Positions 2,207 through 24,150 of a stretch of DNA of 24,289 nt are shown here, piece by piece. Where the stretch lies: the IMG/VR virus record IMGVR_UViG_3300028602_001425, positions 1 through 24,289 of that record. One strand, 5' to 3'. This stretch comes from a virus. Under the pieces are notes generated by a model. The model had not been told where the DNA came from. It was given only the letters and a program-made list of their open reading frames with translations, and searched no databases. A program made the position numbers and the translations under genes. Every line of letters starts with the position of its first letter. Within the stretch, counting starts at the first letter, position 1.

Positions 2207-2219
2207 GGAGGCTAAAAAC

Positions 2220-3250: not shown

Positions 3251-3260
3251 GGTGCGTTAA

Positions 3261-3653: not shown

Positions 3654-3752
3654 TAATGCATGAAGATGAGGGCAGCAATGCCACTACCCCCGGACAACTC
3701 ACCCCGGACACCCCATATATAGAATTCTCAATGTCCGGGGGAATTCCATTTT

Positions 3753-4052: not shown

Positions 4053-4054
4053 AA

Positions 4055-5105: not shown

Positions 5106-5109
5106 AAAA

Positions 5110-5847: not shown

Positions 5848-5856
5848 GGTGGTCTT

Positions 5857-6671: not shown

Positions 6672-6683
6672 AGGCGGCTAAAA

Positions 6684-8639
6684 ATGGGACTGATAGGAGA
6701 AGTATACGCAGATGCCGGGCTACATGTCGATAAAGCCTCTTTTGCTCAATATGCCTCGATGCTGAAGCAGACAGAGGGGCAAATCGGGGATATGTCCTCT
6801 AGTATGCAGGCTGGGATGGTAACTGCATTTTCTGTTCCTGCCGCCGCCGTTGCCGGAATAGCTGCTTATGGTACGACTATAGCCGCTTCTTATGAGGATG
6901 CAAACCTCACTCTCAAAACCTTATATGGAAGTCAAGAAGCTGCACAGCAAAAATTTCAATGGTTACAGCAATTCGCCGCGACAACTCCTTTTGAATTTCC
7001 TGAACTTCTCGAAGCTGCAACCCGTCTAAAGGCTTACGGAATGGACGTGGAGCAATACGGGAGGACTCTAGGAGATACAGCCGCAGGTATGGGAAAGCCC
7101 ATAATGGCAGTAGTTGAAGCGATAGCAGACGCTCAGCAGGGCGAATTTGAAAGGATGAAAGAGTTTGGTATCAAAGCTGTTGAAATCACAAAAAAGAATT
7201 ATGAACAGTTGGGTGCTTCCGTAGAGGATGCTGGCAGAACTGCACTCACGTTCATGGACAAAAACGGCAAGCAGCAGATTGAAGTCATTGATCGAAATAA
7301 CAAAGAAATGATCACCTCTACTATTTCGGCAATTTGGAACGACAAATATGCCGGAGCAATGGAAGAACGTTCCAGGTCATTTAACGGCATGATCTCAGCT
7401 ATTAAAGACAACCTTAAAGCCGGCCTTGCTGATATGGTCGGTTTCGACATGCAGACCGCAACCATTGAAGGGGGAAGTCTTTTAGGAGTTCTTAAGGATC
7501 TTGCCGGTGTTGCTCTTGTTGTTACGGGTGCGTTTTCTAACATGTCTGAACCCATGCAGACATTTGTTTTAGTCGCTGCTCTCGGTGGTGCTGCTGCTCT
7601 TGCTCTTGGTGCGGGGTTCGTGGCAGCAAGTGCGGCGGGAATAACTACTACTGCTGTAATGGGTGCGTTAGGAATCGCTGTCAACACTGTGTTATGGCCC
7701 GCTACCCTCATAGTAGGAACTCTTGCGTTAGTGGCGGCTGGACTTGTTTATCTCGATGAAAAAACAGGGGCGGTAACGTACTCATGGAATTTGATGAAGG
7801 ACATCTTCACAATTGTTGCGTCTGGAATCATGAACGCTGCCTCGATCCTCTGGAATTACATTGTCCAAGCAATGGATGGTATCAAGACAGCTATAGCTGA
7901 TATGTTCCCGCCTGGATTTCTGGAAGGTGTCGGAAACGTTGTAAACGGGGTAATATCCCAATTCACAAACATGGGTAGCAATATTCATACCCAGGCCGAA
8001 GGAATCCGGCAGGATAATACTAACATTGGAACATCAGCAACTACCGCAGGGAGTCAAGTAACCGGAGCCACCGGAGAGATGATTGCGGGGTATTCAGGGG
8101 CAGGTGCGTCTGTTCTTGGTATGAGTTCCACAACCCACACGGCGACGGGCCAAATGATTTCGGATTTTAATACCACGGGCGGAGCCGCAGATTTAATGGG
8201 TGGAGATATCGCCGGAACGGTTGCACCCGTGAACACTTTATCCGGGACGGTGAAAGGAGCAACCGGGGCAAATCAGACGTATGCAGCATCATTTATAAAT
8301 GTCTCAAATCAGGCGAACGCCGCCGCTTCTGCTGCAATTTCAGCCGCTAATAGGATCGGAGCCGCAATAAAAACTAACATAAATCAGGTTGGAGAACTTG
8401 AAGCACTCGCGGGAAAATGGAACACAAGGGCAGCATTAGGCATTACGTCTTCGGGTGGCTCAGGGACCGGGGAAGGAAATGTTAAAATCAAAACTCCTGC
8501 GAATATGTTAACAGCATCAGAAACGGCAGCACGCAAAGCGAATAACACAGTATATAATAATAACATCACGAATAAAAATACAATAAACAATAACGGGGAC
8601 AAGTTGAGTGCCTCGAGAGCTAAGGCAGCAGGGGTCTAA
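6684..8639 (+). CDS. Tape measure protein (651 aa)
   Basis: LKTLYGSQEAAQQKFQWLQQFAATTPFEFPELLEAATRLKAYG tape-measure N-domain motif, central hydrophobic Ala/Gly stretch; ~0.15 nm/residue suggests a tail of roughly 95 nm. Confidence 0.95.
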   Translation: MGLIGEVYADAGLHVDKASFAQYASMLKQTEGQIGDMSSSMQAGMVTAFSVPAAAVAGIAAYGTTIAASYEDANLTLKTLYGSQEAAQQKFQWLQQFAATTPFEFPELLEAATRLKAYGMDVEQYGRTLGDTAAGMGKPIMAVVEAIADAQQGEFERMKEFGIKAVEITKKNYEQLGASVEDAGRTALTFMDKNGKQQIEVIDRNNKEMITSTISAIWNDKYAGAMEERSRSFNGMISAIKDNLKAGLADMVGFDMQTATIEGGSLLGVLKDLAGVALVVTGAFSNMSEPMQTFVLVAALGGAAALALGAGFVAASAAGITTTAVMGALGIAVNTVLWPATLIVGTLALVAAGLVYLDEKTGAVTYSWNLMKDIFTIVASGIMNAASILWNYIVQAMDGIKTAIADMFPPGFLEGVGNVVNGVISQFTNMGSNIHTQAEGIRQDNTNIGTSATTAGSQVTGATGEMIAGYSGAGASVLGMSSTTHTATGQMISDFNTTGGAADLMGGDIAGTVAPVNTLSGTVKGATGANQTYAASFINVSNQANAAASAAISAANRIGAAIKTNINQVGELEALAGKWNTRAALGITSSGGSGTGEGNVKIKTPANMLTASETAARKANNTVYNNNITNKNTINNNGDKLSASRAKAAGV

Positions 8640-8642
8640 AAA

Positions 8643-11600
8643 ATGGTTACAGTTTATGTTTCCAATCTTGGGACAGATGATTATACAGTTGACGGAGATG
8701 CAGATCAGGTACAAATCAATCAAGCCCTCACTTATGCAAACACAAACGGAACACAAGCCAGTCCGGTAACAGTCTATCTCCGAGGCCCGTACACTTATGA
8801 TCTTACAGACAACCTTTTAGCCGGCTCAAACACCATCTTCACGGGAGATACCACAGCAGTATTGAGATTACATAATAGCGCAGGATGGGCACTCTGGAAG
8901 CCGTTAATAGGTCAAATATCCGGTGTAACTCCTCAAAATTTCACTTTTACAAATATTACTGTCGATGGAAATTACGCGAATCAACCCGAATTTACTGCCG
9001 GAAATTGGGGAGATGGCTATTATCCAGGGCTGTTTTTCCAGGGAACTTTAGCTAATCCAGTAAGAAATATTTCAATTCATGATGCTTTATTTAAGGGCAC
9101 TCTAACTGACGGTGTAAGGCTGTCCTATGCCGATTCTGTGAATTTTTATAATAATAAAACCGTAGAATGTATGCACGAGGGCATCTATGTTTTACGGTCT
9201 AAAAACTGTAACATCTATTCAAATTATTTTACCATCCGGACAAACTCGGGACCGAGAATATATAACTCTCAAAATGTCAAGATTTATAATAATACAATGC
9301 GTCCTTATGCCCTTAATTCGGTTGCAGGAAACTTCGGGATTCAAATAGAGGACAATCCATCAAATAAGGACATAACTCTCTATAATGTCGATGTCTATGG
9401 AAATACCCTGGTCAATTGTTGGGGCGGTGGAATCTGGCTTATTGACCTGCAAGGGACATCTACAAACAAGGCTATAAAAATCCATGATAACACAATAACC
9501 GGCTGCGGGAGAATCACAACTACAAATTATAACGCAGGAATCACGATCCAGGGTTTAAATGGAGTTGAAATTTATAATAATGTTCTGAAAGATAATTATA
9601 ACGCAGGTATTTTAATTGCTAATGCTCCGAGCGGAGGCTCAGGATATACTTATTATTACACAAATAATGTAGTTTCCGGCACGCTCGACACTCTTGCGAC
9701 ATCTTCAACTAATATAAAAACTGGTCATGGTTTTGGAGTAGTTAACAGAGTTCCTGCTTCTGTTTCTGTTATAGCTACAAATAATATAGTGAGTGCAAAC
9801 GCTAACGGAGATTATTATCAGGTTAGTAATCTTAATGATGTCCAGACAACTCCTCCGGTAAAGGTCGTTCCGGCAATCCGTATTAATGAGATTGATGAAA
9901 TTGTAGATTATTATATTCCTGGATATGTTTCGTATGTGAACGGCTACCCGGTATTGATTCGAGGCTTCGAGCCGGACACTGATGAAAGCATCGGCACAGA
10001 CAAACCTCCAGGTTGGGACGGATGGGTACTCGGAGATTTCGGCAGCGACGGAACATCAATTAATTTCAGATGTCACGCAATGGGGAAAGATGATTACAGA
10101 AGAGCAGTCGCTTCTTGGAAAAAGAAAGGGAGGGCTTATGTTGAGATCGGAGAAGACCCAGGCTGGCAGGTATCAGGGATTGTCAGAAATCATAATCATA
10201 GAATAGATAAGGACGCAGGAGACATCATGGGGGATGAATCAGCTTATGATTATAATGTTTCCTTTTATAGTGATTCTCCATTTGAGGAGACTGTAAACAA
10301 GCACGTAAGGGCTAGAAAGTTAACGTTCTCTGGGGAGCAGTGGAGCGCAGATAATACTTATGCCGGAAACATCTTAGCTAATCCTTCGTTTGAGGAATGG
10401 ACTAAGGGGGTCACTCAGACGTGGATACCTCGGACCTCTGCTTCGAGTGTAGATTTTAAGGCTGTCGAACACTCCGAAGATCTTTCACAATATTGTGCGG
10501 TGGCTCAGAATAGTATTCAAATATCCTCAGATGCGGTTTCTTGGAGTGTTCCTGGCACACTTCCTGCAAACATTTCAAACGCTTGGAAAGGGCTTATCTG
10601 GGGAGAAACTACAGGAATTGATACGGCCGCCTCTACTCTGAATTATATTCCAGTGTCGTCTGATGGATATATAATGGTATCCTCTGATAATTATACCCCT
10701 GTTTCGACTGACCTCTCAGAAGATGCAGGCATGGCTGCCGGGAGATGGGTAGCAGTCGGATACACCGCCGGAACTGCCGGAGCCGCATGGTCAATGGACG
10801 GGGATTCATGGACAGCAGGAGTCACCCCCACCGGTAATTTTGAAGGCATTTGTTATATCCGAGATGATAAAAATGGGATCTATAGATATGTTGCGGTTGG
10901 AAATAATTTAGTAATTTACTCAGACGACGGCGGAGAAACGTGGTCTTCGGTTGTTGTTTCAGGCTCATTTAAGGCAGTCTGTTATTCTACGACTCTTAAA
11001 AGATTACTTGCTGTTACCACATCTGGAGAGGTCATATATTCAGATAATTTCGCCGAAAATTGGGAGGCGGTTACTGCTCCTTCTCAGGCTTGGCAGGATG
11101 TAATCTACTCAGATACACAGAGTCTTTTCATAGTAATTTCTTCAGATGGGGGACCTCAGCAGGTCATGACCTCCCCCACAGGATTAAGTGGTTCGTGGAC
11201 CCTGCAAAACACTCCTATAGCCGGATCTATAGTTACCCCAGGCGAGGGGGATATTTCCACAGATACGAGACAGACCGATGCAGGATACGTCTACACATCT
11301 GCTGCAATGGTCTATAGTTCCGCTAATACAAGCCTCGAATGGACTTATGTACTCCCTGCTCTTACAGATGGGAGTTTCTACAGACTCGATAGGGTTTTCG
11401 GAAAATTAAGAACCCTTTTAGCTGGAAAAATAGCATACCTGAAAGTGACTATCCATGCGGCCTCTTTATATTCTGGGGTCGAAACGGATCTCATAGAATG
11501 GACTAATAACACCACAACATATTCCCAGAAGTCTTATGATCTAGCGATAGAATCTGAAACGTCTGAAACTGTAACCATCAGATTCTACATGAAAACGTCT

Positions 11601-13460
11601 GACTCTAATTATAGAGCAGCTGCAACAGATCTAGGATTTACGTTTACAGTCGCTGGAGAAACAGGCGGCGAAGTCTCTTATCTGTATAATGAATGGTCTG
11701 CGATCTCAGAAGCTCCTGACAGCGGAATTATTGTAGCAGTCGCTTCAGCAGGAGAAGATAACCAGATAATGACCTCGATAAACGCGGGAATCTGGAATCT
11801 GCAAGCATGTGATAAAGCACTTGCATCAATTTGTTATTCCGAGAGCGATATTAAGTTTGTTACCTGCGGGGCTTCAGGGGCTATCCTAACATCTAGCGAT
11901 TATGGCAGATATGCCAATCCAGATGGATGGGCAGCAGTCAATCCTGGCACTTCTCGCTCTGAGAATTCCACAACGGGAACTTATGCGCTCTTGATTACAG
12001 GAGACGGTTCTACAGATGAGCCTGGAATGATTACTCAGCCAGTCGCTTTTGAAGGCGGTGTGACTTATGCACTTACTGGAGAAGTAGAAAAAGTTGGCTC
12101 TGATGGAATCGCAGTAATTGACATCTATGCTAATGAAGAGGTTATCGCGTCTCTGGAATGGGCAAACGAGGGCACATACTCAGAAAAACAGGAATATATA
12201 AAATTTGAAGTTTCTCCCGTAGGTGCTGTCCTGAGAATTCACGGCTCGGAAACTCCTTCGGCAGGCACTCTGATGTATTTTGACCATATAGTCCTTCAGA
12301 AACTCTCTGACCTCGATATTGATGAATTCGGTTCTGGAATCCTGACAAGCGGGACAGTTGAAACGGTTCCTGATATTTCAATTGAGTCTATGGGGACGCT
12401 CGCGGGATCTGTGGAAGGAAAAGAAACACCAGGGAACTCAAAAACAAATACCGATTTGACAAATGTTGGTAGTACAGCATTTCTTACATACCAGCTTCAG
12501 GACTTTTTCAATTATACCATTTCAGGAGTAGCTGGAAAGAAATACCGGATTGACAAGGTAGGGATAAAAGGATGTGTCGCGGCTTCTGGTGGTAGATGTG
12601 ACTCAAAAATAGAAGTTTATTTAGGCTCCACGTTGGCGGGAACTTACACATTTAGTTCAACTTCTGTACTTGCTTCTTATACATCCCATTCTGCAACCCC
12701 TAACATAATTTGTGAAGCAGGGCAATCAATCTCTTTCAAGTGGTATCTTAAGTCTTCATCGACTTCGATAAGGGCTTATATTCGTGATGCTACGGTAACT
12801 TATACTGAAATCCTGAGTACACCCACAGTTAACATAGATGCAGGTATTTCAGTCTTTAACATCGAAGATCCTTTAACTGTTATGAGGTTAAGCAACAGGA
12901 TTTTCCCCGGAGTAAAAACAACAATAGCCGCAGACGGGACTGGATCTTACAGGTATCTCGAAAATTTCAAAGATTCGAGCTATCAGAGTGCAGTATTATC
13001 AAGGACGGGCGCCTCGTTTAACGAAAGTTTAAAGCAGGTTCTTTTATCTGGTAATCTGGTCTGGGAATTTGACACGCTATACCCAATAACCGGGATACCC
13101 TGGATGAATATTTATGTTGTTTCAGGAGTCCCTAAACTTGAAATTTCAGTTGATAATGTGACGTGGAGAGCTTGTGATAGTAATAATACGACTTCGATAA
13201 CCGGAGAACAGGTAACTAGGGAATTGGATAACGCAGAAAACCTGAGACTCTACGGAAAGACTAGATTTTATGTCCGGCTGTCCCCGGCTTCTGGAAATCT
13301 TACAATTGGGTCTATCAGCCTGTTTACTTACCTGATTACTATTGATGCAGAACGTCCTGTTATTTCCGCTAACGGAGAGGCTAATACATTCCAGGTCAAT
13401 ATGTCAAATAATGTCCCCTGCATTGTTTCAATGAAATACCCGGATAAACACTGGATCTGA
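8643..13460 (+). CDS. Giant distal tail protein (Dit) with N-terminal disaggregatase-like beta-helix and nested CBM/beta-propeller/jelly-roll insertions (1605 aa)
   Basis: Between tape measure and hub. aa 1-400 parallel beta-helix; aa ~430-570 Dit-like N-domain; NILANPSFEEWT (576-587) resumes at ANPDGW (1091); Asp-box repeats (e.g. SDDGGETW); C-terminus ANGEANTFQV...IVSMKYPDKHW like Dit termini. Confidence 0.85.
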   Translation: MVTVYVSNLGTDDYTVDGDADQVQINQALTYANTNGTQASPVTVYLRGPYTYDLTDNLLAGSNTIFTGDTTAVLRLHNSAGWALWKPLIGQISGVTPQNFTFTNITVDGNYANQPEFTAGNWGDGYYPGLFFQGTLANPVRNISIHDALFKGTLTDGVRLSYADSVNFYNNKTVECMHEGIYVLRSKNCNIYSNYFTIRTNSGPRIYNSQNVKIYNNTMRPYALNSVAGNFGIQIEDNPSNKDITLYNVDVYGNTLVNCWGGGIWLIDLQGTSTNKAIKIHDNTITGCGRITTTNYNAGITIQGLNGVEIYNNVLKDNYNAGILIANAPSGGSGYTYYYTNNVVSGTLDTLATSSTNIKTGHGFGVVNRVPASVSVIATNNIVSANANGDYYQVSNLNDVQTTPPVKVVPAIRINEIDEIVDYYIPGYVSYVNGYPVLIRGFEPDTDESIGTDKPPGWDGWVLGDFGSDGTSINFRCHAMGKDDYRRAVASWKKKGRAYVEIGEDPGWQVSGIVRNHNHRIDKDAGDIMGDESAYDYNVSFYSDSPFEETVNKHVRARKLTFSGEQWSADNTYAGNILANPSFEEWTKGVTQTWIPRTSASSVDFKAVEHSEDLSQYCAVAQNSIQISSDAVSWSVPGTLPANISNAWKGLIWGETTGIDTAASTLNYIPVSSDGYIMVSSDNYTPVSTDLSEDAGMAAGRWVAVGYTAGTAGAAWSMDGDSWTAGVTPTGNFEGICYIRDDKNGIYRYVAVGNNLVIYSDDGGETWSSVVVSGSFKAVCYSTTLKRLLAVTTSGEVIYSDNFAENWEAVTAPSQAWQDVIYSDTQSLFIVISSDGGPQQVMTSPTGLSGSWTLQNTPIAGSIVTPGEGDISTDTRQTDAGYVYTSAAMVYSSANTSLEWTYVLPALTDGSFYRLDRVFGKLRTLLAGKIAYLKVTIHAASLYSGVETDLIEWTNNTTTYSQKSYDLAIESETSETVTIRFYMKTSDSNYRAAATDLGFTFTVAGETGGEVSYLYNEWSAISEAPDSGIIVAVASAGEDNQIMTSINAGIWNLQACDKALASICYSESDIKFVTCGASGAILTSSDYGRYANPDGWAAVNPGTSRSENSTTGTYALLITGDGSTDEPGMITQPVAFEGGVTYALTGEVEKVGSDGIAVIDIYANEEVIASLEWANEGTYSEKQEYIKFEVSPVGAVLRIHGSETPSAGTLMYFDHIVLQKLSDLDIDEFGSGILTSGTVETVPDISIESMGTLAGSVEGKETPGNSKTNTDLTNVGSTAFLTYQLQDFFNYTISGVAGKKYRIDKVGIKGCVAASGGRCDSKIEVYLGSTLAGTYTFSSTSVLASYTSHSATPNIICEAGQSISFKWYLKSSSTSIRAYIRDATVTYTEILSTPTVNIDAGISVFNIEDPLTVMRLSNRIFPGVKTTIAADGTGSYRYLENFKDSSYQSAVLSRTGASFNESLKQVLLSGNLVWEFDTLYPITGIPWMNIYVVSGVPKLEISVDNVTWRACDSNNTTSITGEQVTRELDNAENLRLYGKTRFYVRLSPASGNLTIGSISLFTYLITIDAERPVISANGEANTFQVNMSNNVPCIVSMKYPDKHWI

Positions 13461-13464
13461 TACT

Positions 13465-14652
13465 ATGCTCTGGTATTTCAGACCCCGATTAATAATTCAA
13501 AAACCAACAGGAGAGAGGTATTTTCCAAAAATCGTTTCTGCTTCTGTCACGGAAACAAGGGAATTCTCAAATCCTGAATTCGCAGAAATCGAGATAATCA
13601 CAAACAGAAGTCCTTATACTTCTGAATTTGTTAATGCAATTTCAGAGGATGATATAGTCAGATTACAAGTTTCCTGCCGGATGTCCCCCAAGGAAAAATA
13701 CGTTTTTGTTGACATCTTCGAGGGACTTGTAAGAAGAATTTCAGGAGATTATTCAACTAAAAATAATACTTCTATTTTGTGCAAAGGGCACATAGATGAG
13801 GCTACAAAGCTCTTGATAAGAGAGGCTAAAACGTGGACAGGAACTGTCGAAGCCAGGGAAATATTAACCTATCTTGTAAATCCTGCACATAATGTAACGC
13901 GGCTTACGTGGTTGAATCAGGCTCCTTATGTAGACCAGACCGGCAGTGTTTCTTTTACCGATGCTGAATCGGCGTATGCTACAAAAGCAGATCAAACTTA
14001 TTTATCAACTGTTTTTCAGGATCTAGAAAAGCAAAGTGGTTATAACTGGAAAATAGGCACTAAGTGTCTCTATGCCACAACAGGACTGCTTGATAAGACC
14101 TACTTAACTTGGAAACAAAATTCTGCAATCGCTACGGACAAATACAAAGCAATCGAGGGCACTGCAAGGTATCTAGGAAGCACTTTTGTGTTGTCGATCG
14201 AAGATCAGGCTACCGAATACGTGATAAAGGGAGATACACCCGAGGCCGGAACTCAATATAGTGGATCTGCAATTAATATCAATGCAGTTTCCCGCTACGG
14301 ATATAAGACCGATGTTGATGTTTTTACACAGTTACAAAGTAACGCGACTTGTAAAAGTATAGCTGAAGGTGCTCTACCTGACAAAATTCAAGCCGAAATA
14401 ACAGGCTCAATAAAATTGGTTGGAACCCCGGACGCCAGTGCCGGAGATGTTGTTTATGTTAAAACGCGATCAACAGAGCTTAACGGCGGTGTCATTTCAG
14501 GTAATTTTGACGTTTCAAGAGTCAGGCATGTAATCTCTTCTAATTCTTATCATACTGAAATTCAAGTCGGTGGAATTGTAGAAAATGCTTATGATCTTAT
14601 TGCGAAAATTAAGAAAACTTCTACAGTAACAAAATGTAATCAGGTGAAATAA
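13465..14652 (+). CDS. Baseplate hub / Tal (gp27/GPD-like) protein
   Basis: DIFEGLVRRI...LCKG, and C-terminal GSIKLVGTPDASAGDVVYV...FDVSRVRHVIS...TEIQV typical of hub folds; follows Dit. Confidence 0.8.
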   Translation: MLWYFRPRLIIQKPTGERYFPKIVSASVTETREFSNPEFAEIEIITNRSPYTSEFVNAISEDDIVRLQVSCRMSPKEKYVFVDIFEGLVRRISGDYSTKNNTSILCKGHIDEATKLLIREAKTWTGTVEAREILTYLVNPAHNVTRLTWLNQAPYVDQTGSVSFTDAESAYATKADQTYLSTVFQDLEKQSGYNWKIGTKCLYATTGLLDKTYLTWKQNSAIATDKYKAIEGTARYLGSTFVLSIEDQATEYVIKGDTPEAGTQYSGSAININAVSRYGYKTDVDVFTQLQSNATCKSIAEGALPDKIQAEITGSIKLVGTPDASAGDVVYVKTRSTELNGGVISGNFDVSRVRHVISSNSYHTEIQVGGIVENAYDLIAKIKKTSTVTKCNQVK

Positions 14653-16647
14653 ATGACAGCTCAAGAATATCCAATCTCAGGAATGACAATATCTGAAATC
14701 GTGGATTCTCTAACGAATACTAGAGATCCAAATGCTCACGCGGCTTCCCACAAATCAGGTGCTACAGACGCGCTGAAACTTACGGATTTGGCGGTAGCGG
14801 ATAACGTAACTGCCAATAATGCGACAACTACAAGACCTGGACTGTGCCCTAAACTCTCCGGGACATCTACAGAATACCTTGACGGTTCGGGGGCTTGGTC
14901 AACGCCTGACGGGGGATCCTCAATCACACTCCCAGGATCATCCACAGTTTTTTATAACGGTCTGGGTGGGTGGTCTACTCCTTCAGCATCCGGCTCAACG
15001 TTTAAGCCGTATATAACGATAGGGAGAACAGGATCAGGCGCAGATTACGAATGTGACGGGACCAGTGATAACGTTCAGATTCAGAAAGCTCTTAGTGACG
15101 TGAGTTCTGGAACCCAGATTGTATTTTTGCAAGGGACTTATAATTGTACTTCCCCACTTGCTATAAATTCAAAGAGTTTGTGGTTAAAAGGCATCGGAAA
15201 CGTAACCATTAATTTTGCTCTTTCGGGATATCAGGCGGCTGCAATGCAGTTCCAGGGGTCGTCGGTACTATCCACGACTCTTTCTTCGAATGCATCAAAG
15301 GGAGCTACCTCTGTTGTACTCACGTCAGTTTCAGGAGTCAGTGCGGGACAGTTAATTGTAATTTACAATGATGTCATATGGTCAGACTATCCTGATTACA
15401 ATGATATCTGCACGGGTGAAACATACGAAATAAAATCAGTATCAGGAAGTACAGTATACCTAAGTGATCCACTTGTACGCACTTATAACACTGCTGATAC
15501 TGCCAGTGCTCGCATTTTCTCGCCTGTAGAAATTCATATGGAAAATCTTAATATAGTTGGTGACGGTGCTTCCGGCGACCAGTTGGGACTTATTGTGAGG
15601 TATGGGAGTAAAATAAGTGTCAATAGGTGCTCTTTTAAAGATAATAATCTTTCAGGAATTATTCTATACACATGTTATGATGTTGACATTTATGGTAACA
15701 GTATAAACAATTGTACATTAGACGGACTTGGGTATGGTGTGGCTATTACTACGGCATCTGCAAAAGCTAGGATCACACATAACAATATAAACAATTGCAG
15801 ACATTGCATCTCAGTTACAAGCAATAAAGCTGTTCACGGAATGAATAGGGATGTCATAATAGCAAATAACGTATGTTATGGATCATCAACGATCACTGGA
15901 GCCATCGACGCCCACCCCAACTGTATAAATTGGATGGTCGTAAATAACATTATCCATGCGGTAAACAGGGGCATTATTAACGGCGCACAGCACATGATTT
16001 GTGAGGGTAATGAATTTAGGGACATCTCAGAAGGTGCAATATTTCATAACAAAGTGATAAATTTCCCCAGGTCTGTGAAAATATCAGGTAACAAATGCCA
16101 GATGGGTGGATATTTCTACAGCGACACTTCCACTGATGATTACTCAACAGTATCAATCACAGATAACGAAATTGACGGGGGTTATATTTCTATTTATACT
16201 CCCTCATCAAAATCAAGAAACATAGAAGCAATCAACATCTCCAATAATATAATTAGAAATGTATCAGGAAAAGCGATAAATACTTACCTCGAAAATCAGA
16301 ACGGGCCTTCATATATTAATATCCATGATAACAATATCGTGGACTGTACGCAAGAAGGGATCTATGTAGATCTCGTTGTCGCAGAAAACAGTATAGTAAA
16401 TATATCAAATAATATAATTATAAATCCAAATTCATCCGCAGGAGGTTACGCGGGAATCAAGGCTCATAGAATGACATACAGTACTATTGAGGGTAATACT
16501 GTTTATGACACTGCAAGCCGTGGAGGGGCTGCAATTGCTACCGGGACAAGTTGCGATTATAACGTTGTTGTGGGTAATATTGCAAGAGGGACAACTGGAA
16601 TAAGTTTGACAGGATCAAATAACGTGTCAGAGCATAATTTATCATGA
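14653..16647 (+). CDS. Tail spike/fibre with right-handed beta-helix (putative depolymerase), 664 aa
   Basis: N-terminal fibre motifs (HAASH, GxWSTP repeats), GADYECDGTSDNVQIQKAL helix cap, inserted beta-domain (aa ~205-290), many I-x-x-N-x-I repeats to the C-terminus. Confidence 0.85.
   Translation: MTAQEYPISGMTISEIVDSLTNTRDPNAHAASHKSGATDALKLTDLAVADNVTANNATTTRPGLCPKLSGTSTEYLDGSGAWSTPDGGSSITLPGSSTVFYNGLGGWSTPSASGSTFKPYITIGRTGSGADYECDGTSDNVQIQKALSDVSSGTQIVFLQGTYNCTSPLAINSKSLWLKGIGNVTINFALSGYQAAAMQFQGSSVLSTTLSSNASKGATSVVLTSVSGVSAGQLIVIYNDVIWSDYPDYNDICTGETYEIKSVSGSTVYLSDPLVRTYNTADTASARIFSPVEIHMENLNIVGDGASGDQLGLIVRYGSKISVNRCSFKDNNLSGIILYTCYDVDIYGNSINNCTLDGLGYGVAITTASAKARITHNNINNCRHCISVTSNKAVHGMNRDVIIANNVCYGSSTITGAIDAHPNCINWMVVNNIIHAVNRGIINGAQHMICEGNEFRDISEGAIFHNKVINFPRSVKISGNKCQMGGYFYSDTSTDDYSTVSITDNEIDGGYISIYTPSSKSRNIEAINISNNIIRNVSGKAINTYLENQNGPSYINIHDNNIVDCTQEGIYVDLVVAENSIVNISNNIIINPNSSAGGYAGIKAHRMTYSTIEGNTVYDTASRGGAAIATGTSCDYNVVVGNIARGTTGISLTGSNNVSEHNLS
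14854..14982 (+). repeat. Two tandem 18-aa tail-fibre repeats
   Basis: LSGTSTEYLDGSGAWSTP (aa 68-85) and LPGSSTVFYNGLGGWSTP (aa 93-110). Confidence 0.7.
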
Positions 16648-16655
16648 TTTGTGAG

Positions 16656-16700
16656 CTGAGTAGATTTCCTACTCGGTTATTTATATTTTTAGTTATATTT
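16656..16700 (+). terminator. Probable terminator of the late operon
   Basis: Hairpin CTGAGTAG-ATTTC-CTACTCGG (16656-16676) followed by T-rich tracts; convergent junction. Confidence 0.55.
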
Positions 16701-17210: not shown

Positions 17211-17339
17211 CTTCAACGTCTGAAGATGTTCAATACATATTGAGAAATTAGGTGTCGATTCGAGTCTGAGGATATCATTTATTATCCCGACGGATTCCGC
17301 TCTTGAGAGCGTTATTTTAATTTGTCGTTCGATTTTCAT
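17190..17339 (-). CDS. Hypothetical protein (49 aa)
   Basis: MKIERQIKITLSRAESVGIINDILRLESTPNFSICIEHLQTLKKCILEE; ATGA overlap with the upstream gene. Missed by the ORF track. Confidence 0.65.
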   Translation of the reverse strand: MKIERQIKITLSRAESVGIINDILRLESTPNFSICIEHLQTLKKCILEE

Positions 17340-17704
17340 CCACTCATCCACCTATTAACCTCTTCAGCCCCACGAATATATTTTAACTTACCACATAATT
17401 TAATTTTCACATCTGCTCCTAACGTCATTGTATCCAATAACTTATAATCTATAATTTTGCCTTCATAAATCCATGTGTAAATATCTGCAATTTTTACCGT
17501 ATATTCATGAATTTCATTATCTGAATGTGCTGAGGTGTCTATAATTCGTTGCCCTTCGTCTCCTAAAATTGTATTATATGTCAGTCTTGCGGTTTCAGTG
17601 CGCATATACGGAACAGGTATTCCATCTAAATGAATGCCGGTAATTTCAATCCCGTCCACATACACTTTTATTTTGCCGTAGGGGTCAATTGGATCAACTA
17701 ACAT
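17336..17704 (-). CDS. Tail-tube-protein paralog lacking the long polymerisation loop and Ig domain (122 aa)
   Basis: Aligns by eye to the 5110-5847 product: 16 of 28 identities over TTP aa 3-30, and ARLTYNTILGDEGQ vs AEITGIKISGDAGQ; GGAGGT RBS. Confidence 0.8.
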   Translation of the reverse strand: MLVDPIDPYGKIKVYVDGIEITGIHLDGIPVPYMRTETARLTYNTILGDEGQRIIDTSAHSDNEIHEYTVKIADIYTWIYEGKIIDYKLLDTMTLGADVKIKLCGKLKYIRGAEEVNRWMSG

Positions 17705-17729
17705 TTTATTATACCTCCAAAATACATTT
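17705..17729. repeat. 25-bp gene-junction direct repeat, copy 2
   Basis: TTTATTATACCTCCAAAATACATTT; contains stop codons and the GGAGG RBS on the minus strand. Confidence 0.9.
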
Positions 17730-17927
17730 TAATAAACCTCCTTCGTACTTTATCCTGTTCTCTTTAATAAGTTCCTCTAAACAGTGCACAACGTTTTCTG
17801 ATTTAGAGTTGTTAGGGCAATGAAGTGCTAGTTCGTATATGGAGATTCCACTATCAAACGACTTGATTGTGAAATATATATACATTTTTAAATGAAAATG
17901 TTTAATCTTTTCGATAATGTTTGACAT
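17709..17927 (-). CDS. Small winged-helix DNA-binding protein (72 aa)
   Basis: GISIYELALHC...ENVVHCLEELIKENRIKYEGG helix-turn-helix plus wing pattern. Confidence 0.6.
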   Translation of the reverse strand: MSNIIEKIKHFHLKMYIYFTIKSFDSGISIYELALHCPNNSKSENVVHCLEELIKENRIKYEGGLLKCILEV

Positions 17928-18073
17928 GTGTTAATATCATCCCCGTTTCTACAATTTCCATCTTCCATTACTTTCCCCATAAAATAAAATGATTCGATAT
18001 TCCCACATACCCAGTTTTTTCCTTGCATGAGTCCAGGCTGCCGCCAGTGGATACATGCCCCACATGACCCCAT
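17888..18073 (-). CDS. Cys-rich small protein (61 aa), CxxCxHW...C...C
   Basis: Start reassigned to ATG 18073 (GAGGGG RBS): MGSCGACIHWRQPGLMQGKNWVCGNIES...; overlaps the next gene by 40 nt. Confidence 0.6.
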   Translation of the reverse strand: MGSCGACIHWRQPGLMQGKNWVCGNIESFYFMGKVMEDGNCRNGDDINTCQTLSKRLNIFI

Positions 18074-18081
18074 ACCGCCCC

Positions 18082-18210
18082 TCAGTCGTCTGTTTCTTCG
18101 TCTGGCTCTGTGAATGTTGAATCCTCGCAATCGTACATATGCGGGCAGTCTAGGCAACTGTCCCACAGGCATATACCAGTATATGAGAGGTTATCAGTTT
18201 CGGAGGACAT
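18082..18210 (-). CDS. Cys/His-rich acidic microprotein (42 aa)
   Basis: MSSETDNLSYTGICLWDSCLDCPHMYDCEDSTFTEPDEETDD; GAGG RBS. Missed by the ORF track. Confidence 0.6.
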   Translation of the reverse strand: MSSETDNLSYTGICLWDSCLDCPHMYDCEDSTFTEPDEETDD

Positions 18211-18240
18211 TTTAAGCCTCAAAAATATAATTAGGGAGGA

Positions 18241-18525
18241 TCATGCGATCCTTTCCCCTCCGAGAAGCACAATTTCAGATCTATTCGGGATATACATGGC
18301 ATTTTTCTCGAAAGGCTCCTCATCGTCCCCGCCGTCAACTGTCATTTTATAGACATCCTGCAGGCATCCGAGATCGGTTCTTTGATCTTTTCTGAATATA
18401 TTATCATGCCATCTTCTTACTTTCCCGTAGAAAGTACAGTTTTTTACATCCGCGTTTCTCTTCTGAACCCACGCTTTCGCGATTGGTTCGCTTGGTGCTA
18501 CAACTTGGATTTGTATTTCTGTCAT
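18241..18525 (-). CDS. Hypothetical protein (94 aa)
   Basis: First gene after promoter repeat copy 1; AGGAGCCA leader. Confidence 0.7.
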   Translation of the reverse strand: MTEIQIQVVAPSEPIAKAWVQKRNADVKNCTFYGKVRRWHDNIFRKDQRTDLGCLQDVYKMTVDGGDDEEPFEKNAMYIPNRSEIVLLGGERIA

Positions 18526-18578
18526 GTTTGTGGCTCCTTTGAACTTTAGTTATCTTAACGCAGGACACTATTCTAGCC

Positions 18579-18621
18579 CTGTATATAGTAATAGTACATT
18601 ATACTATTTATAGTTTACTGT
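18579..18621 (-). promoter_or_regulatory. 43-bp promoter repeat, copy 1
   Basis: CTGTATATAGTAATAGTACATTATACTATTTATAGTTTACTGT; the minus strand reads GTAAAC-TATAAATA (BRE-like + TATA); 42/43 identical to 19222-19264. Confidence 0.8.
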
Positions 18622-18631
18622 AGTCGGTTTG

Positions 18632-18638
18632 AAAAAAA
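18632..18638 (-). terminator. Oligo-T7 archaeal-type terminator
   Basis: T7 on the minus strand immediately after the 18639 stop and before the next promoter copy. Confidence 0.4.
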
Positions 18639-18935
18639 TTAATTATGCAAAATATAAGTTATATCCTTATTTTTAAAATCGATCCCAATTGAAGAAGGAT
18701 TCCCTCTGTAATTTATTTTACACGTCCAAACGTGATCTTTAGAAGATATTTTTATTTTGGACTCTGATATAAGGGATACACCTAAAATTACTGTGCATGT
18801 TTTCCATTTAGATTTCGTTAATTTCGGGTATCCGTTTTGATCTGTTTTTGAATATCCGTACTCTTCTTCTGGTTTTATTTCGAGAGTCATATCCGAAGAG
18901 TGAGTCCATTTTTTACTGTCTGAAGGTCTTGCCAT
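18639..18935 (-). CDS. Hypothetical protein (98 aa), possibly tandem AbrB/DUF2080-like swapped-hairpin domains
   Basis: Two similar segments, SKTDQNGYPKLTKSKWKTCTVILGV and CKINYRGNPSSIGIDFKNKDITYIL; family call weak. Confidence 0.55.
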   Translation of the reverse strand: MARPSDSKKWTHSSDMTLEIKPEEEYGYSKTDQNGYPKLTKSKWKTCTVILGVSLISESKIKISSKDHVWTCKINYRGNPSSIGIDFKNKDITYILHN

Positions 18936-18957
18936 TGATGGAACCTCTAAAAATTGG

Positions 18958-19194
18958 TTATGGGTCCTCGGAGTATTCCGTCAGTTCAGCAACCGATTGG
19001 AATTCCTTTATGGCATATTTTACAAAATGCAGTTCGCTTTCTATGTGGATTATTTCCAACACAGCAGGAGAGTAATCTAGTGATACCGCATTTACAGGGA
19101 TTTCTTTTATTTCTGATATCAGTTTGTCAAGCTTCTTCTTTAGTGTGTTCAGCGTATCAATCAGGGTTTCTTGTGATTCATTTGTAAATTCCAT
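18958..19194 (-). CDS. Helical coiled-coil protein (78 aa)
   Basis: AGGTGA RBS; first gene after promoter repeat copy 2. Confidence 0.65.
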   Translation of the reverse strand: MEFTNESQETLIDTLNTLKKKLDKLISEIKEIPVNAVSLDYSPAVLEIIHIESELHFVKYAIKEFQSVAELTEYSEDP

Positions 19195-19377: not shown

Positions 19378-19782
19378 ATGCAAATAAAAGTAATATCAGG
19401 ACGGGACGAGATCCCTCTATTATTGCCAAATGAAAAAATAGTCCATATCGGATTTAGACCTTCAAACGCTGATATATATAGTGTCTGTGAATCCTGCCCG
19501 AAAATAGAGGCAATACAAGTACCGCCGTCGTATTTCGTCAGCATTTCAAAATCTATTCAAACATTTCTCAGAATGCAGAAAATACAACTGTTAGAGGGAG
19601 ATGTAGGAGGGCACAGGAAAGACCTGCATCCTTATTATGTTGTTCCCTCTTATATCACTGAAAAAATCAAAGAAATGAAAGAAGACGGAACAAAACCGGA
19701 CGACATTGTTAAATTTGTGTCAAGACTGCATAGAATGAGTGAGCCGTTAGCCGCTTATGTTGTGCAGTCTGTGAAGGTGTGA
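19378..19782 (+). CDS. DUF1699 family protein (134 aa)
   Basis: MQIKVISGRDEI...EKIVHIGFRPSNADI...CPKIEAIQVPPSY...ISKSIQTFLRMQKIQLLEGDVGGHRKDL, recognised as the Methanosarcinales DUF1699 pattern; start moved to ATG 19378 (AAGGAG RBS). Confidence 0.85.
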   Translation: MQIKVISGRDEIPLLLPNEKIVHIGFRPSNADIYSVCESCPKIEAIQVPPSYFVSISKSIQTFLRMQKIQLLEGDVGGHRKDLHPYYVVPSYITEKIKEMKEDGTKPDDIVKFVSRLHRMSEPLAAYVVQSVKV

Positions 19783-19784: not shown

Positions 19785-19943
19785 ATGGTACACATGATAC
19801 GATCAGATGAGTTTAATGATAATGAAGATGAACAAAAAATAGTATCATTGGAAGAATATAATAAATTCATGGAGTTAGCTGCTAAAATGGGGATTGCTGC
19901 AATCACATTAAATTATATAATTTTTATAAAATGGGATGTCTAA
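19785..19943 (+). CDS. Small protein (52 aa), acidic N-half and hydrophobic C-terminus
   Basis: MVHMIRSDEFNDNEDEQKIVSLEEYNKFMELAAKMGIAAITLNYIIFIKWDV; AAGGTG RBS. Missed by the ORF track. Confidence 0.55.
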   Translation: MVHMIRSDEFNDNEDEQKIVSLEEYNKFMELAAKMGIAAITLNYIIFIKWDV

Positions 19944-19948
19944 ATTCC

Positions 19949-19982
19949 TTTACTCTTTTAATTCTTTTTTTTTAATTCTTTT
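19949..19982 (+). terminator. Oligo-T terminator
   Basis: Several T-tracts including T9 at 19965-19973 right after the stop. Confidence 0.5.
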
Positions 19983-20039
19983 ACTGATATATTAATTATA
20001 GGATGTTGCACATATCACATAATAACAGGGAGTTATAAT

Positions 20040-21458
20040 ATGGCAACATTAACACTAACACCAGGCACTTTTAAACAGTCAACTTTTGATAAAGTCGGTG
20101 ACGGTTTTCAGTATGACACTATCCACTTAAAACCGGGAGCCTATACCGCATCTCTCCCCTATAAATTAAATTCTGGGACTACAATTACAGCCGATCAGGG
20201 AGCAATAATTACCCTGATTCCGAATGCTTCAGAATCTCTTTTTCCCTCGATGCGGCCAATCTTCGGACAGGTTAAAAATACTATCCAAAATATTGATATT
20301 TCAGGTTTGACAATTGATGGGAACAGTGGCCGGCAGACAGTGCCCTCTGGAAAAGGTTTTCATAATGCGTTTTGGTTTCAACGTTCTGAAAATATTAACA
20401 TTCACGATTTGACAGTCCAAAACTCGCTGGGGGATGGGCTAAGAATCACCGACGGGAAAAACATTACATTCGCAAGAAATAAAGTTCTCCGTTGTGGCCA
20501 TGATGCGGTTTACTGCGACGGAGCGGATACAGTAGACGTTTTTAACAATTATGTTGAACTGAGAGTAAATTCAGGCTGTCGGTTGAGACATACCAAAAAC
20601 GGGCACGTTTATAATAATTACATAATTAATAAAAATGGGGGGGCAGCATCAAGCCCAGGCATGCAGATCGAAGTCTCAACGGCGGGAATGTCCTCCAAAA
20701 ATATCCTGATAGAAAATAATGAAATAAGAGGGACTTGGGGGCCGGGTATTTGGGTTATTGGGCTTGTGAATTCTAATATTTCAGCAGCTACCGGGCTGAC
20801 AATAAGAAATAATCTATTTTACGATTGCGGCAACATGGACGGGTCTTATCACCATATACCAGGAGTGGGCGGCATTGTTGCGGATGGTTGGGATAAGTTA
20901 GATGTCTCTTATAATACTTTTGATAAGTGTCTCGGTTATGGGGTTTCGCTTGGGCCTTATGTCTCGGCTACTCCTGCGGGGAAAGGATATAGTGCGAAGA
21001 TCTACAGAAACATTATAACGAATACTCAGAAGTCGAATGAAGTCGGGACGGCATCAGGGGCGGCCATTGCTAATCTTGTGCAGGATAGATATACATCTGT
21101 TGAAGTCTATGAAAACTGTACTTATGGGAATGTTCGGAATTATTACGGAGTTTCGCCGTCCAAGGAGATCCTCTCAGATCCTCTCTATGCCGGGGATGGA
21201 GATTATCATCTGAAATCTACAGCAGGGCGGTATTCGGGCTCTCAGTGGGTCATGGATGATGTAATGAGCCCGTGTATATTATCTGAATACGAGCTAGGCA
21301 TGTATGGAGGGACTTCTGAAGCATCTCGGTATACTGCTCTACCTGTCGAACCGGAACCCGTACAAACTGTTTATGTTGTGATTCCCTGCGAGAGTGAGGA
21401 AAGCGCGAAACAAACTGCTGACGGGCATGAGGGTGCGTTTATAATCTATCGAAAATGA
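20040..21458 (+). CDS. Free-standing disaggregatase-like parallel beta-helix protein (putative polysaccharide depolymerase), 472 aa
   Basis: PSMRPIFGQ, GKGFHN, GDGLRI, GHD, RVNSGCRL, PGMQIE, GPGIW and DYHLKSTAGRY...SPCI motifs, as recalled for Methanosarcina disaggregatase-related proteins; no signal peptide. Confidence 0.85.
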   Translation: MATLTLTPGTFKQSTFDKVGDGFQYDTIHLKPGAYTASLPYKLNSGTTITADQGAIITLIPNASESLFPSMRPIFGQVKNTIQNIDISGLTIDGNSGRQTVPSGKGFHNAFWFQRSENINIHDLTVQNSLGDGLRITDGKNITFARNKVLRCGHDAVYCDGADTVDVFNNYVELRVNSGCRLRHTKNGHVYNNYIINKNGGAASSPGMQIEVSTAGMSSKNILIENNEIRGTWGPGIWVIGLVNSNISAATGLTIRNNLFYDCGNMDGSYHHIPGVGGIVADGWDKLDVSYNTFDKCLGYGVSLGPYVSATPAGKGYSAKIYRNIITNTQKSNEVGTASGAAIANLVQDRYTSVEVYENCTYGNVRNYYGVSPSKEILSDPLYAGDGDYHLKSTAGRYSGSQWVMDDVMSPCILSEYELGMYGGTSEASRYTALPVEPEPVQTVYVVIPCESEESAKQTADGHEGAFIIYRK

Positions 21459-21467: not shown

Positions 21468-21611
21468 ATGAATCCGGTTTGTGGGGTTTGCGGGCATTTT
21501 AGACCGGATTCAGATTTCCCTTTTTTATTTGGGGAATGTACCGTGAAGGGGCGGTATGTTGCGTTTTATTCAATTTGCGATTTGGGAAAATGGGTTGAAA
21601 AAGATAATTAA
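21468..21611 (+). CDS. Cys-rich microprotein (47 aa), CxxCxHF...C...C
   Basis: MNPVCGVCGHFRPDSDFPFLFGECTVKGRYVAFYSICDLGKWVEKDN; GAGGT RBS. Missed by the ORF track. Confidence 0.65.
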   Translation: MNPVCGVCGHFRPDSDFPFLFGECTVKGRYVAFYSICDLGKWVEKDN

Positions 21612-22274: not shown

Positions 22275-22340
22275 CCAGCCTGCCTCCTCCTCAGGCTGGT
22301 CATAATGTCGTTTTAGCGGGTTCAAGTCCCGTGAACGGCT
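22275..22340 (+). ncRNA. Hairpin + tRNA-like minihelix, unit 1
   Basis: CCAGCCTG/CAGGCTGG stem with CCTCCTCCT loop; 7-nt spacer; GTCGTTT-TA-GCGGG-TTCAAGT-CCCGT-GAACGGC-T. Confidence 0.5.
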
Positions 22341-22419
22341 GAAGGTGATATAAAAAGAAGGAACCACGATAAGAAGAACAGACCGGGAAACACGAAATCA
22401 AATCTATCTTTGAGGAACA

Positions 22420-22498
22420 CCCCTGCTTTTAAGCCGGCAGGGGCCTAAATGTCCATGTAGTATCAGACTAACAACGGGTTAAAATCCCGGCATGGGCT
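22420..22498 (+). ncRNA. Hairpin + tRNA-like element, unit 2
   Basis: CCCCTGC/GCAGGGG stem; 7-nt spacer; GTCCATG-TA-14 nt-ACGGG-TTAAAAT-CCCGG-CATGGGC-T. Confidence 0.5.
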
Positions 22499-22531
22499 TA
22501 TTATTCTTTTTAAACAGTTCGGAGCCACGAT

Positions 22532-23009: not shown

Positions 23010-23155
23010 TGGCAGGATATAATCAAGCAGCTGCGGTAGATGCTCTTATGGCAGCGGACGAGACCGAAAAGAGGTTTTGTGGTTTTTGTGGGAAACCGTT
23101 CGACGTCGAGATTGAGAGCGGGGAAAGTAACTGTCCAGAGTGCAGGGAGGACTAA
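23009..23155 (+). CDS. Zinc-ribbon microprotein (48 aa), CxxC...CPxC
   Basis: ...KRFCGFCGKPFDVEIESGESNCPECRED; AGGAGGAGGT RBS. Missed by the ORF track. Confidence 0.7.
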   Translation: MAGYNQAAAVDALMAADETEKRFCGFCGKPFDVEIESGESNCPECRED

Positions 23156-23157
23156 AT

Positions 23158-23601
23158 ATGACCCCTGAAGAAATCAATACCAGGATGAATATCTTGTTAG
23201 GTCTTCGCGGATTTTCAATTGTGAAATTGACCGACAAAACCGCCATGTGGCGGCTGCTTTCAGATGATGAGTTAATCTTAGATGTCACATTCCCTCCAAA
23301 ATTGTGGGAAGTCAAGCACAAGGGGAAATCATGTGGAATTGAAAGCGGAGAAATTCCCGGCCCTACAAAAAATATGATAGACGCGCTTATAGAGGACTTT
23401 GAGGCGGCATGTAATCAGGATGTTCATCCCTCCGAGAACTCTGAAGAATATCAAATTGAGTCCTTTGAAGAGCCCGAAGAATATCCTGAGGATGAGACGC
23501 CGAGCAGGATAAAACTGAGTGATGAAGATCTTATCAAAAAACTTGATGAGATTATTTTGAACCCCGGACCAGCAGATAAAACTTTGTGGGTGAAATTATG
23601 A
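23158..23601 (+). CDS. Hypothetical protein (147 aa) with acidic linker
   Basis: Start moved to ATG 23158 (GGAGG RBS). Confidence 0.7.
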   Translation: MTPEEINTRMNILLGLRGFSIVKLTDKTAMWRLLSDDELILDVTFPPKLWEVKHKGKSCGIESGEIPGPTKNMIDALIEDFEAACNQDVHPSENSEEYQIESFEEPEEYPEDETPSRIKLSDEDLIKKLDEIILNPGPADKTLWVKL

Positions 23602-23948
23602 CCCCGGTATGCATGATTGAAGTACATGACGGGCTCCTTGTATCAGAGGACAAAGTGATGATGAAAGCCCGGTGCCCTGAACTGTTCCCGGCAAACATAC
23701 AGGCATATTTCCAAGACAAGGAAAAGATAAGCTCAAAAAAAATTGATTTTGGGATTCATAAGGTACGAGTATGCACGGAATCAAGGCGGGCTGTGTATGA
23801 TACAAAATTGATTTTGTATGTAAAGTCATTGGGAAAAATTGAGTATTACCTCTCAAACGTGAAGCTGCCTTGCGAGGAAGGGGAATATTACACACTCTTT
23901 GCGAAATATAAGTATGGGTGGTGTGTGGTTGCGCCGTTGGATGGGTGA
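23598..23948 (+). CDS. Hypothetical protein (116 aa)
   Basis: ATGA overlap at 23598-23601. Confidence 0.65.
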   Translation: MTPVCMIEVHDGLLVSEDKVMMKARCPELFPANIQAYFQDKEKISSKKIDFGIHKVRVCTESRRAVYDTKLILYVKSLGKIEYYLSNVKLPCEEGEYYTLFAKYKYGWCVVAPLDG

Positions 23949-24150
23949 CAAGGTGGCTACAGATAACCAATACAGCACCCCTCTCCTTGCATGTGATCCC
24001 AAAATCAGAGGGACTGCAATTTGTCACACTGATGGAAAATGTTCTCAGTGTGTGTTTGCGCAGAAATATGAAAATCCCGAAGAAGTCCCTTTATTTTTTC
24101 AAGAGTTAATTAAACGTGCAAAGGAGGCTGAAAAACGTGAAACTCACTGA
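23941..24150 (+). CDS. Cys-containing hypothetical protein (69 aa)
   Basis: ATG 23941 overlaps the previous stop; C...CH...CxxC. Confidence 0.6.
   Translation: MGDKVATDNQYSTPLLACDPKIRGTAICHTDGKCSQCVFAQKYENPEEVPLFFQELIKRAKEAEKRETH

Follow-up and report, generated by a model that had tools for sequence, protein, structure and literature searches.

A distinct signal-less, virus-borne branch of the disaggregatase family with a plausible role in the release or spread of Methanosarcina viruses

Introduction

Except in methanogens with a pseudomurein wall, little is known of how tailed archaeal viruses leave the host cell (PMC10791045). A gene of the IMG/VR virus record IMGVR_UViG_3300028602_001425 raises the question of what a matrix-directed enzyme, encoded apart from the tail, may do for such a virus. 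The whole record, hereafter "the window", is 24,289 bp long with an estimated completeness of 43%. At positions 20040-21458 it encodes P0001, a stand-alone protein that the original prediction had described as a second, soluble disaggregatase-like enzyme and a candidate endolysin analogue for Methanosarcina, or else as a modifier of host aggregation during lysogeny.

Methanochondroitin is an outer matrix located beyond the S-layer; it is not a stress-bearing wall and is dispensable for single-cell growth. It contains glucuronic acid and N-acetylgalactosamine (GalNAc), and is degraded by the characterised host disaggregatase (PMC12369344, review), that of M. mazei being the only host enzyme characterised (PMC12369344). 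Within aggregates, Methanosarcina cells are resistant to MetSV, the only virus of this genus that has been studied well (PMC12369344), and removal of the matrix would therefore pay. We report here that P0001 belongs to a distinct signal-less, virus-borne branch of the disaggregatase family, for which sequence and gene context make a role in release or spread plausible.

Domains and fold of P0001

P0001 and its parts are encoded as follows:

20040-21458, plus strand: open reading frame (ORF) of P0001, a stand-alone disaggregatase-family beta-helix enzyme of 472 amino acids (aa), with an ATG start and GGAG upstream
20043-21314, plus strand: putative catalytic body, a right-handed parallel beta-helix (residues ~2-425, from the secondary structure of the model)
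21333-21365, plus strand: disordered linker (residues 432-442, predicted local distance difference test (pLDDT) <50), variable and Pro/Glu-rich in homologues
21375-21452, plus strand: C-terminal beta-alpha-beta tag (residues 446-471, from the AlphaFold model and a tag hidden Markov model (HMM))

P0001 is a member of the Disaggr_assoc (PF08480) beta-helix family. In Pfam, residues 221-413 match this family with an E-value of 3.2e-33 and 115.7 bits, the curated cut-off being 22.6 bits, and residues 84-242 match the Beta_helix domain (E 2.7e-15, 56.8 bits). C-terminal of residue 413 there is no Pfam match, and P0001 harbors no Disaggr_repeat (PF06848) or CBM96 modules. A Kyte-Doolittle scan reveals no hydrophobic or transmembrane segment anywhere in the protein, and no signal peptide. 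In the AlphaFold model (pLDDT 91.7, predicted template modelling score 0.87), the right-handed beta-helix starts at residue 2-3, residues 1-30 forming a helix cap. Since the modelled beta-helix begins there, P0001 has no separate N-terminal anchor or virion-binding domain, and the predicted lack of both a signal peptide and an anchor stands.

Four residues, D132, R135, H154, and R181, are invariant in a 28-sequence family alignment that includes host enzymes, and D155 and Q209 are nearly so. In the model, the six are found about one helix turn apart, at the starts of equivalent strands, a spacing that would be expected of a substrate groove. The nearest solved folds (Foldseek, E 1e-8 to 3e-5, 10-16% identity) are the alginate C5-epimerases AlgE4/AlgE6, GH28 polygalacturonases, PL6 lyases, and the Vibrio matrix lyase RbmB, all of which are enzymes acting on uronate-containing polymers. 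The tailspikes HK620 and CBA120 TSP3 are also among the fold matches. A profile search against solved chains returned weak, out-of-register matches only, and the P0001 residues were aligned to no solved active site, so that the enzyme may be a hydrolase or a lyase.

Relatives and probable host

A large protein collection contains 45 relatives of P0001-like length, the closest being 90%, 60%, and 42-57% identical, and none is informatively named. Their contigs are viral, with tape measure, tail, primase, MCM, RecT, or thymidylate synthase genes around. One relative belongs to a provirus in a Methanosarcinales metagenome-assembled genome (MAG), where it adjoins an integrase and host genes, and another to a provirus of the complete genome CP009516.1. 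The same MAG holds eight host-type PF08480 genes (E 1e-70 to 1e-90) and two proviral copies (E 1e-22 and 1e-18).

Family members occur in 82 of 177 Methanosarcinaceae genomes; among 14 control genomes, PF08480 is matched in Methanosarcina acetivorans only. Chromosomal proteins of the Methanosarcinaceae are 33-39% identical to P0001 over residues ~19-427. Related DNA was detected in sequencing runs from manure, wastewater, digester, and bioreactor samples, belonging to 15 studies. None of the runs with this stretch is recorded as RNA; two runs tentatively labelled as RNA are probably DNA and yielded short contigs only. With these proviral relatives, this family distribution, these sample types, and the relatives of the neighbouring DUF1699 gene (see below), a host within Methanosarcina or close Methanosarcinaceae is well supported, and for this particular contig it is probable.

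When 1.84 billion representatives are searched with a profile, 742 clusters reach E ≤ 1e-3, of which 218 reach E ≤ 1e-30. Two architectures recur among 188 family proteins: 70 are short (≤520 aa) and signal-less with a domain start at residue ≤30, and in another 50, whose N-terminus is hydrophobic, the domain begins near residue 50-66. The host forms P0034, P0035, and P0040 possess such an N-terminal hydrophobic leader, which P0001 lacks. In a maximum-likelihood tree of 54 sequences, a branch with an SH-aLRT (approximate likelihood-ratio test) support of 100 parts the stand-alone proteins from the secreted host proteins and from all four tail-fused domains. P0001, the chromosomal 422-aa proviral copy, and a truncated 376-aa copy fall on the stand-alone side. 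P0001 and the tail-fused enzyme of the window are therefore old paralogues and not the products of a recent duplication.

The 376-aa copy, signal-less and tag-less, is nearly identical in eight Methanosarcinaceae genomes (L025, which is CP009520.1, and L013-L020), outside recognisable proviruses, and may be a domesticated or decaying viral gene. It is located in an island with CAT, Cas1, and Mrr gene fragments and an Apyc1-like metallo-beta-lactamase gene. A tblastn search of 50,697 GenBank phage and archaeal virus records (INPHARED) revealed no P0001 homologue, and a literature search found no paper connecting a disaggregatase with a virus.

The tail-fused paralogue and the selection on P0001

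The tail-fused paralogue and the gene order of the window are as follows:

first in the gene order: HK97/encapsulin-like capsid gene and tail terminator gene
6684-8639: tape measure gene, preceding the gene of the 1605-aa protein
8643-13460: 1605-aa tail protein, directly after the tape measure gene
8643-9854, plus strand: disaggregatase-like domain at the N-terminus of the 1605-aa tail protein (PF08480 E 1e-18; BLASTP to P0001)
after the 1605-aa protein and before the minus-strand block: 395-aa tail protein and 664-aa beta-helix protein
16654-16678, plus strand: putative terminator-like hairpin with T-run, 3' of the last tail gene (consensus scan)
17336-19194, minus strand: block of small ORFs between the late operon and the P0001 gene
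after the minus-strand block, plus strand: DUF1699 gene, P0001 gene, and start of the early region

P0001 aligns with residues 43-404 of the 1605-aa protein over 379 residues (BLASTP, 27% identity, E 2e-31), and the Beta_helix and Disaggr_assoc families both match the first ~400 residues of the latter. The resemblance had originally been read from four motif pairs, GDGLRI/TDGVRL, RVNSGCRL/RTNSGPRI, PGMQIE/FGIQIE, and WGPGIW/WGGGIW. All are present and, since all fall within the BLASTP alignment, the resemblance is far beyond chance; a second PF08480 enzyme, separate from the tail-fused one, is thus confirmed. The putative groove residues of P0001 are also present in the tail-fused domain.

Neighbourhood counts given here refer to 22 distinct viral or proviral loci that carry the stand-alone gene, a lower bound (at least 22). 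In 15 of them, another member of the family is encoded no farther than 10 kb away, so that the co-occurrence check proposed with the original prediction gave a positive result. Among these second members are tail proteins of 1425-1617 aa (L004, L006, L030, and L040) and tail-end proteins of ~500-560 aa (L003, L033, L034, L036, and L037).

The closest complete relative, IMGVR_UViG_2667528052_000001, to which the locus L030 belongs, is a genome of 56,152 bp with direct terminal repeats (CheckV 100%), in which no tyrosine integrase was found. It displays 90% nucleotide identity to window positions 1-8640. The tape measure proteins of the two are 98% identical, P0001 is 96% identical to its orthologue, and the DUF1699 proteins are 95% identical. 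At the tail tip (window 8643-16647), the 1605-aa protein and its 1425-aa counterpart share 34-46%, the 395-aa protein 67%, and the 664-aa beta-helix protein is missing from L030, a typical host-range cassette swap. P0001 therefore evolves like the backbone, unlike the exchangeable tail-tip proteins. The ratio of nonsynonymous to synonymous substitution rates (dN/dS) is 0.09 against the L030 orthologue and 0.10 against that of L003 (90% identity): the P0001 gene is under strong purifying selection.

Gene neighbourhood and control region

In all 22 loci, the stand-alone gene is located at the distal end of the morphogenesis genes, and never within the tail-tip gene set. In most of them it follows a siphovirus-type tail module, often behind a short minus-strand block, and in L034 the cassette directly continues the tail genes on the same strand. 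In two elements the gene adjoins a Mu-F head gene: in L027 the two share a strand, and in the CP009516.1 provirus the enzyme gene runs in the opposite direction, between the Mu-F and capsid genes. The cassette moves between virus backbones. In the window, the P0001 gene lies 3.4 kb beyond the last tail gene, with the terminator-like site and the minus-strand block in between and a conserved promoter-like region of its own, so that its assignment outside the late operon holds. Its immediate surroundings are the following:

19378-19782, plus strand: DUF1699 gene (Pfam PF08004, E 6e-46), 134 aa, ATG at 19378
19941-20039, plus strand: conserved upstream control region, with a T-run (19968-19976), the TATA-like GATATATTAATTATAG (19986-20001), and GGAG (20029-20032)
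21468-21611, plus strand: 47-aa ORF with four cysteines (CxxC...C...C), starting 9 nt past the P0001 stop codon

The window, L030, and L003 have nearly the same ~100 nt directly 5' of the P0001 start, but farther upstream their sequences are diverged or unrelated. This block appears to be a dedicated, constrained control region and probably acts as a promoter. No convincing second copy of the promoter motif is found in the window, late operon included, and expression timing is therefore not inferable from shared promoters. Gene-less variants suggested by contig joints (19969 to 21637/21641, and 19785 to 21331, in two runs) were not trusted, their flanks being of 25-31 nt in the T-rich conserved element.

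The DUF1699 gene is found directly upstream of the enzyme in half of the loci (11/22), and the proteins most closely related to that of the window are encoded by the other viral loci. In L036 and L037, the DUF1699 protein is 91% identical to the window copy, while the enzyme there is only 43% identical. Its model (pLDDT 87) displays an alpha/beta domain followed by a three-helix end. A reading of these parts as a DRTGG-like domain with a DNA-binding-like end was rejected, the Z-scores (~6-7) being below the trustworthy level; a literature search on DUF1699 returned unrelated FAM83 papers only. The 47-aa four-Cys ORF is kept directly 3' of the enzyme in L031 (91%), L030 (85%), L003 (73%), L041 (44%), and L028 (37%), even where the enzyme itself is only 33-60% identical. 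A terminator-like hairpin (21535-21560) lies inside it.

The C-terminal tag and its partners

The original prediction had not noted the conserved beta-alpha-beta tag that ends P0001 behind the disordered linker. The tag, comprising the last ~27-35 residues, is a conserved feature of many of the stand-alone enzymes in the 28-sequence alignment and is lacking in the host forms. Its pattern consists of a hydrophobic strand, a Cys, an acidic helix, a second hydrophobic strand, and a basic end. A protein-atlas look-up of P0001 residues 430-472 gave no usable match. The same tag ends proteins encoded directly downstream of the enzyme in related viruses:

L004, 11409-12050: tagged downstream partner
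L026 (CP009516.1 provirus), 11271-11957: tagged downstream partner
L006, 11236-11778: tagged downstream partner
L007, 11432-11953: tagged downstream partner
L009, 1746-2309: tagged downstream partner

The partners are of two types. Those of L004 and CP009516.1 are Disaggr_repeat/CBM96 proteins of 213-228 aa, and those of L006, L007, and L009 are jelly-roll-like proteins of 173-187 aa, which resemble an internal module of the tail protein of the window (encoded at ~11310-11651). The window itself has no tagged partner. In the loci examined, the tag HMM matches the C-termini of stand-alone enzymes and of their downstream partners only, with no match in structural genes. In the metagenomic protein P0060 (685 aa), the tag is internal, between a stand-alone-type beta-helix and a GH46 chitosanase-like domain (E 6e-39). 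The tag may serve in self- or hetero-association, or may dock its protein to a component of the virion or of the envelope.

The tail region of the CP009516.1 provirus (L026, 3432-6453) also harbors a GH46 protein and a 656-aa polysaccharide deacetylase, which suggests a deacetylase/GH46 route against the GalNAc-rich matrix.

Proposed function and its alternatives

The reading that we favour, with moderate confidence, is that P0001 is a cytoplasmically made, soluble methanochondroitin depolymerase, freed at lysis, which would serve as an accessory release or spread enzyme and not as a true endolysin. Whereas its family, its fold, the lack of a signal or anchor, the purifying selection, the separate conserved cassette, and the distinct clade are shown, its substrate, timing, solubility, and benefit are inferred. 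Its gene, placed at the far end of the morphogenesis module, would have a promoter of its own, and the protein, having no export signal, would stay in the cytoplasm until the membrane and S-layer of the infected cell fail. It would then diffuse and cut methanochondroitin around the lysed cell and its neighbours, thereby freeing progeny trapped in the aggregate and uncovering the S-layer of adjacent cells. The tail-fused paralogue would have the same function on a local scale, for the individual virion as it enters. In phages, soluble depolymerases that are set free at lysis form an established class (PMC5380687), and the Pei enzymes of methanogen viruses are likewise without a known export route (PMC10791045).

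The term "endolysin analogue" is too strong for such a protein, because the matrix does not hold the cell together and no holin-like gene is adjacent. No ORF with a transmembrane segment is found on a coding strand between 16648 and 23000, and the only transmembrane candidates of the window are at 170-511 and 3753-4052. This absence of a holin-like neighbour also weighs against release at lysis as proposed here, as do several other points. The tag is common to the enzyme and to carbohydrate-binding-like partners; it has the appearance of a module for docking or assembly, by which these proteins could be attached to the virion. The PHROGs matches of P0001 are tail spike families, although weak and obtained through the generic beta-helix. 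That methanochondroitin is the substrate is an assumption based on the family, and the PF08480 matches of the viral clade are far weaker than those of the host genes.

The main alternative to a soluble enzyme is virion attachment through the tag, which we consider possible but on the unlikely side. P0001, with its tagged partner in related viruses, would dock onto a head or tail protein as an accessory depolymerase, giving two matrix enzymes per particle. Adaptor segments shared by variable enzymatic bodies are typical of phage spikes, and here the tag is common to otherwise unrelated cassette proteins. The likeness of the 173-187-aa partners to a module of the tail protein, the constant vicinity of the cassette to morphogenesis genes, and the tail spike families among the PHROGs matches point the same way. 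However, the beta-helix of P0001 leaves no N-terminal anchor, and its gene in the window stands outside the late operon, past the minus-strand block and with its own control region. P0001 is, moreover, conserved at 96% where tail-tip proteins are swapped. Because the same cassette occurs in viruses with differing head and tail gene sets, no common docking partner is evident, and the tag HMM detects no cognate element in the structural genes. In P0060, furthermore, the tag is an internal linker between two enzymes.

The tag might instead be a docking module by which the signal-less enzyme and separate tagged binding modules, of the CBM96/Disaggr_repeat or the jelly-roll type, assemble into a non-covalent, multi-subunit matrix-degrading complex; in P0060 it would join the enzyme to the GH46 domain instead. 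We hold this idea as tentative and rather doubtful. Such a complex would be an archaeal-virus counterpart of multimeric endolysins or of a mini-cellulosome. Among tailed archaeal viruses with a pseudomurein-less host, it would also be the first machinery described that is dedicated to egress or spread.

It is improbable that P0001 is the product of an accessory "moron" gene acting in a carrier cell. In that role it would alter the aggregation of the host or its synthesis of matrix in a lysogenic or chronic carrier state, for instance by degrading matrix precursors inside the cell or after an unconventional release. The promoter-like region of the gene would suit this role, as would its opposite-strand position inside the head module of the CP009516.1 provirus, the truncated 376-aa copies kept in eight genomes outside recognisable proviruses, and the relative that adjoins an integrase in the Methanosarcinales MAG. 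As long as the cell is intact, however, its extracellular matrix is out of reach of a signal-less enzyme, the closest complete relative possesses terminal repeats and no tyrosine integrase, and the cassette of L034 continues the tail genes on the same strand. The lysogeny option of the original prediction is thus weakened for this lineage.

Lastly, a non-catalytic beta-helix, i.e., an adhesin or binding protein with lost activity, recalls the adhesin beta-helices such as PfbA found among the fold matches but is very improbable, because the polar residues lining the rungs (D132, R135, H154, D155, R181, and Q209) are invariant or nearly so family-wide, host enzymes included, and the gene is under strong purifying selection.

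Other observations in the window and in related loci

In L007, a 73-kb groundwater viral contig, type IV CRISPR-Cas-like genes (a faint Csf1, Csf3, and RAMP) and a PAPS reductase gene (4404-7608) are located in the minus-strand block adjoining the enzyme cassette. In the window, ARAGORN and Rfam call nothing near the P0001 gene. Two tRNA T-arm-like stretches with acceptor ends, GCGGGTTCAAGTCCCGTGAACGGC near 22310 and CGGGTTAAAATCCCGGCATGGGC near 22475 (window 22275-22500), likewise gave no call with either program, and might be attachment-site remnants or tRNA-like elements. An ORF at 23140-23601 matches the N-terminal part of a ~480-aa "Gp3-like" early protein of L003 and L007. The region 23140-24150 is composed of several short overlapping ORFs, and this splitting suggests frameshifts or assembly errors.

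Significance

The conserved, virus-specific, signal-less branch of the disaggregatase family provides a concrete gene for functional study. Should P0001 prove active, archaeal viruses would gain their first assigned matrix depolymerase, and Methanosarcina genetics and digester research would gain a practical reagent for breaking up cell clumps. The gene would also serve as a marker for Methanosarcina viruses in digester, manure, and wastewater metagenomes.

Comparison with known systems

Polysaccharide depolymerases of the phage type are a known kind of enzyme; what is new is that one occurs in archaeal viruses and has this architecture, with a tag and a cassette. Among the closest counterparts of P0001 are the M. 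mazei disaggregatase and the host "disaggregatase-related" proteins (PF08480/PF06848), with which it shares the beta-helix family, the groove residues, and the presumed substrate methanochondroitin. In contrast to these, it is viral, falls in a separate clade, has no signal peptide, and carries the C-terminal tag instead of Disaggr_repeat/CBM96 modules, which in relatives of P0001 are found on a separate downstream gene.

The PghP enzyme of Bacillus phage PhiNIT1 exemplifies the soluble phage depolymerases. Like members of that class, as described for phages (PMC5380687), P0001 is encoded by a stand-alone gene apart from the tail-fibre and receptor-binding genes, with neither anchor nor export signal, and its expected role would be the same, the clearing of extracellular polymer for the progeny. 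It differs by its archaeal host, a polymer made by Methanosarcina only, the coexisting tail-fused paralogue, the tag, and the DUF1699/partner cassette. Tailspike depolymerases such as HK620 and CBA120 TSP3 possess the same right-handed beta-helix body, and the tail-fused paralogue fits their class, whereas P0001 has no N-terminal particle-binding domain, is located outside the tail module, and is shorter than all the tailspikes listed.

Mycobacteriophage LysB, an accessory lysis enzyme, belongs to a comparable class of signal-less enzymes that degrade the envelope. The pseudomurein endoisopeptidases PeiP, PeiW, and PeiR of methanogen viruses are likewise virus-encoded and signal-less envelope-degrading enzymes, whose gene in siphovirus genomes follows the structural genes (PMC10791045). 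P0001 differs from all of these by its unrelated fold and chemistry and by its presumed target, an outer matrix rather than a rigid wall, which is why it alone cannot cause lysis. Its best structural matches remain the A-modules of AlgE4/AlgE6, the PL6 lyases, GH28, and RbmB, the last being an enzyme that disperses the biofilm matrix.

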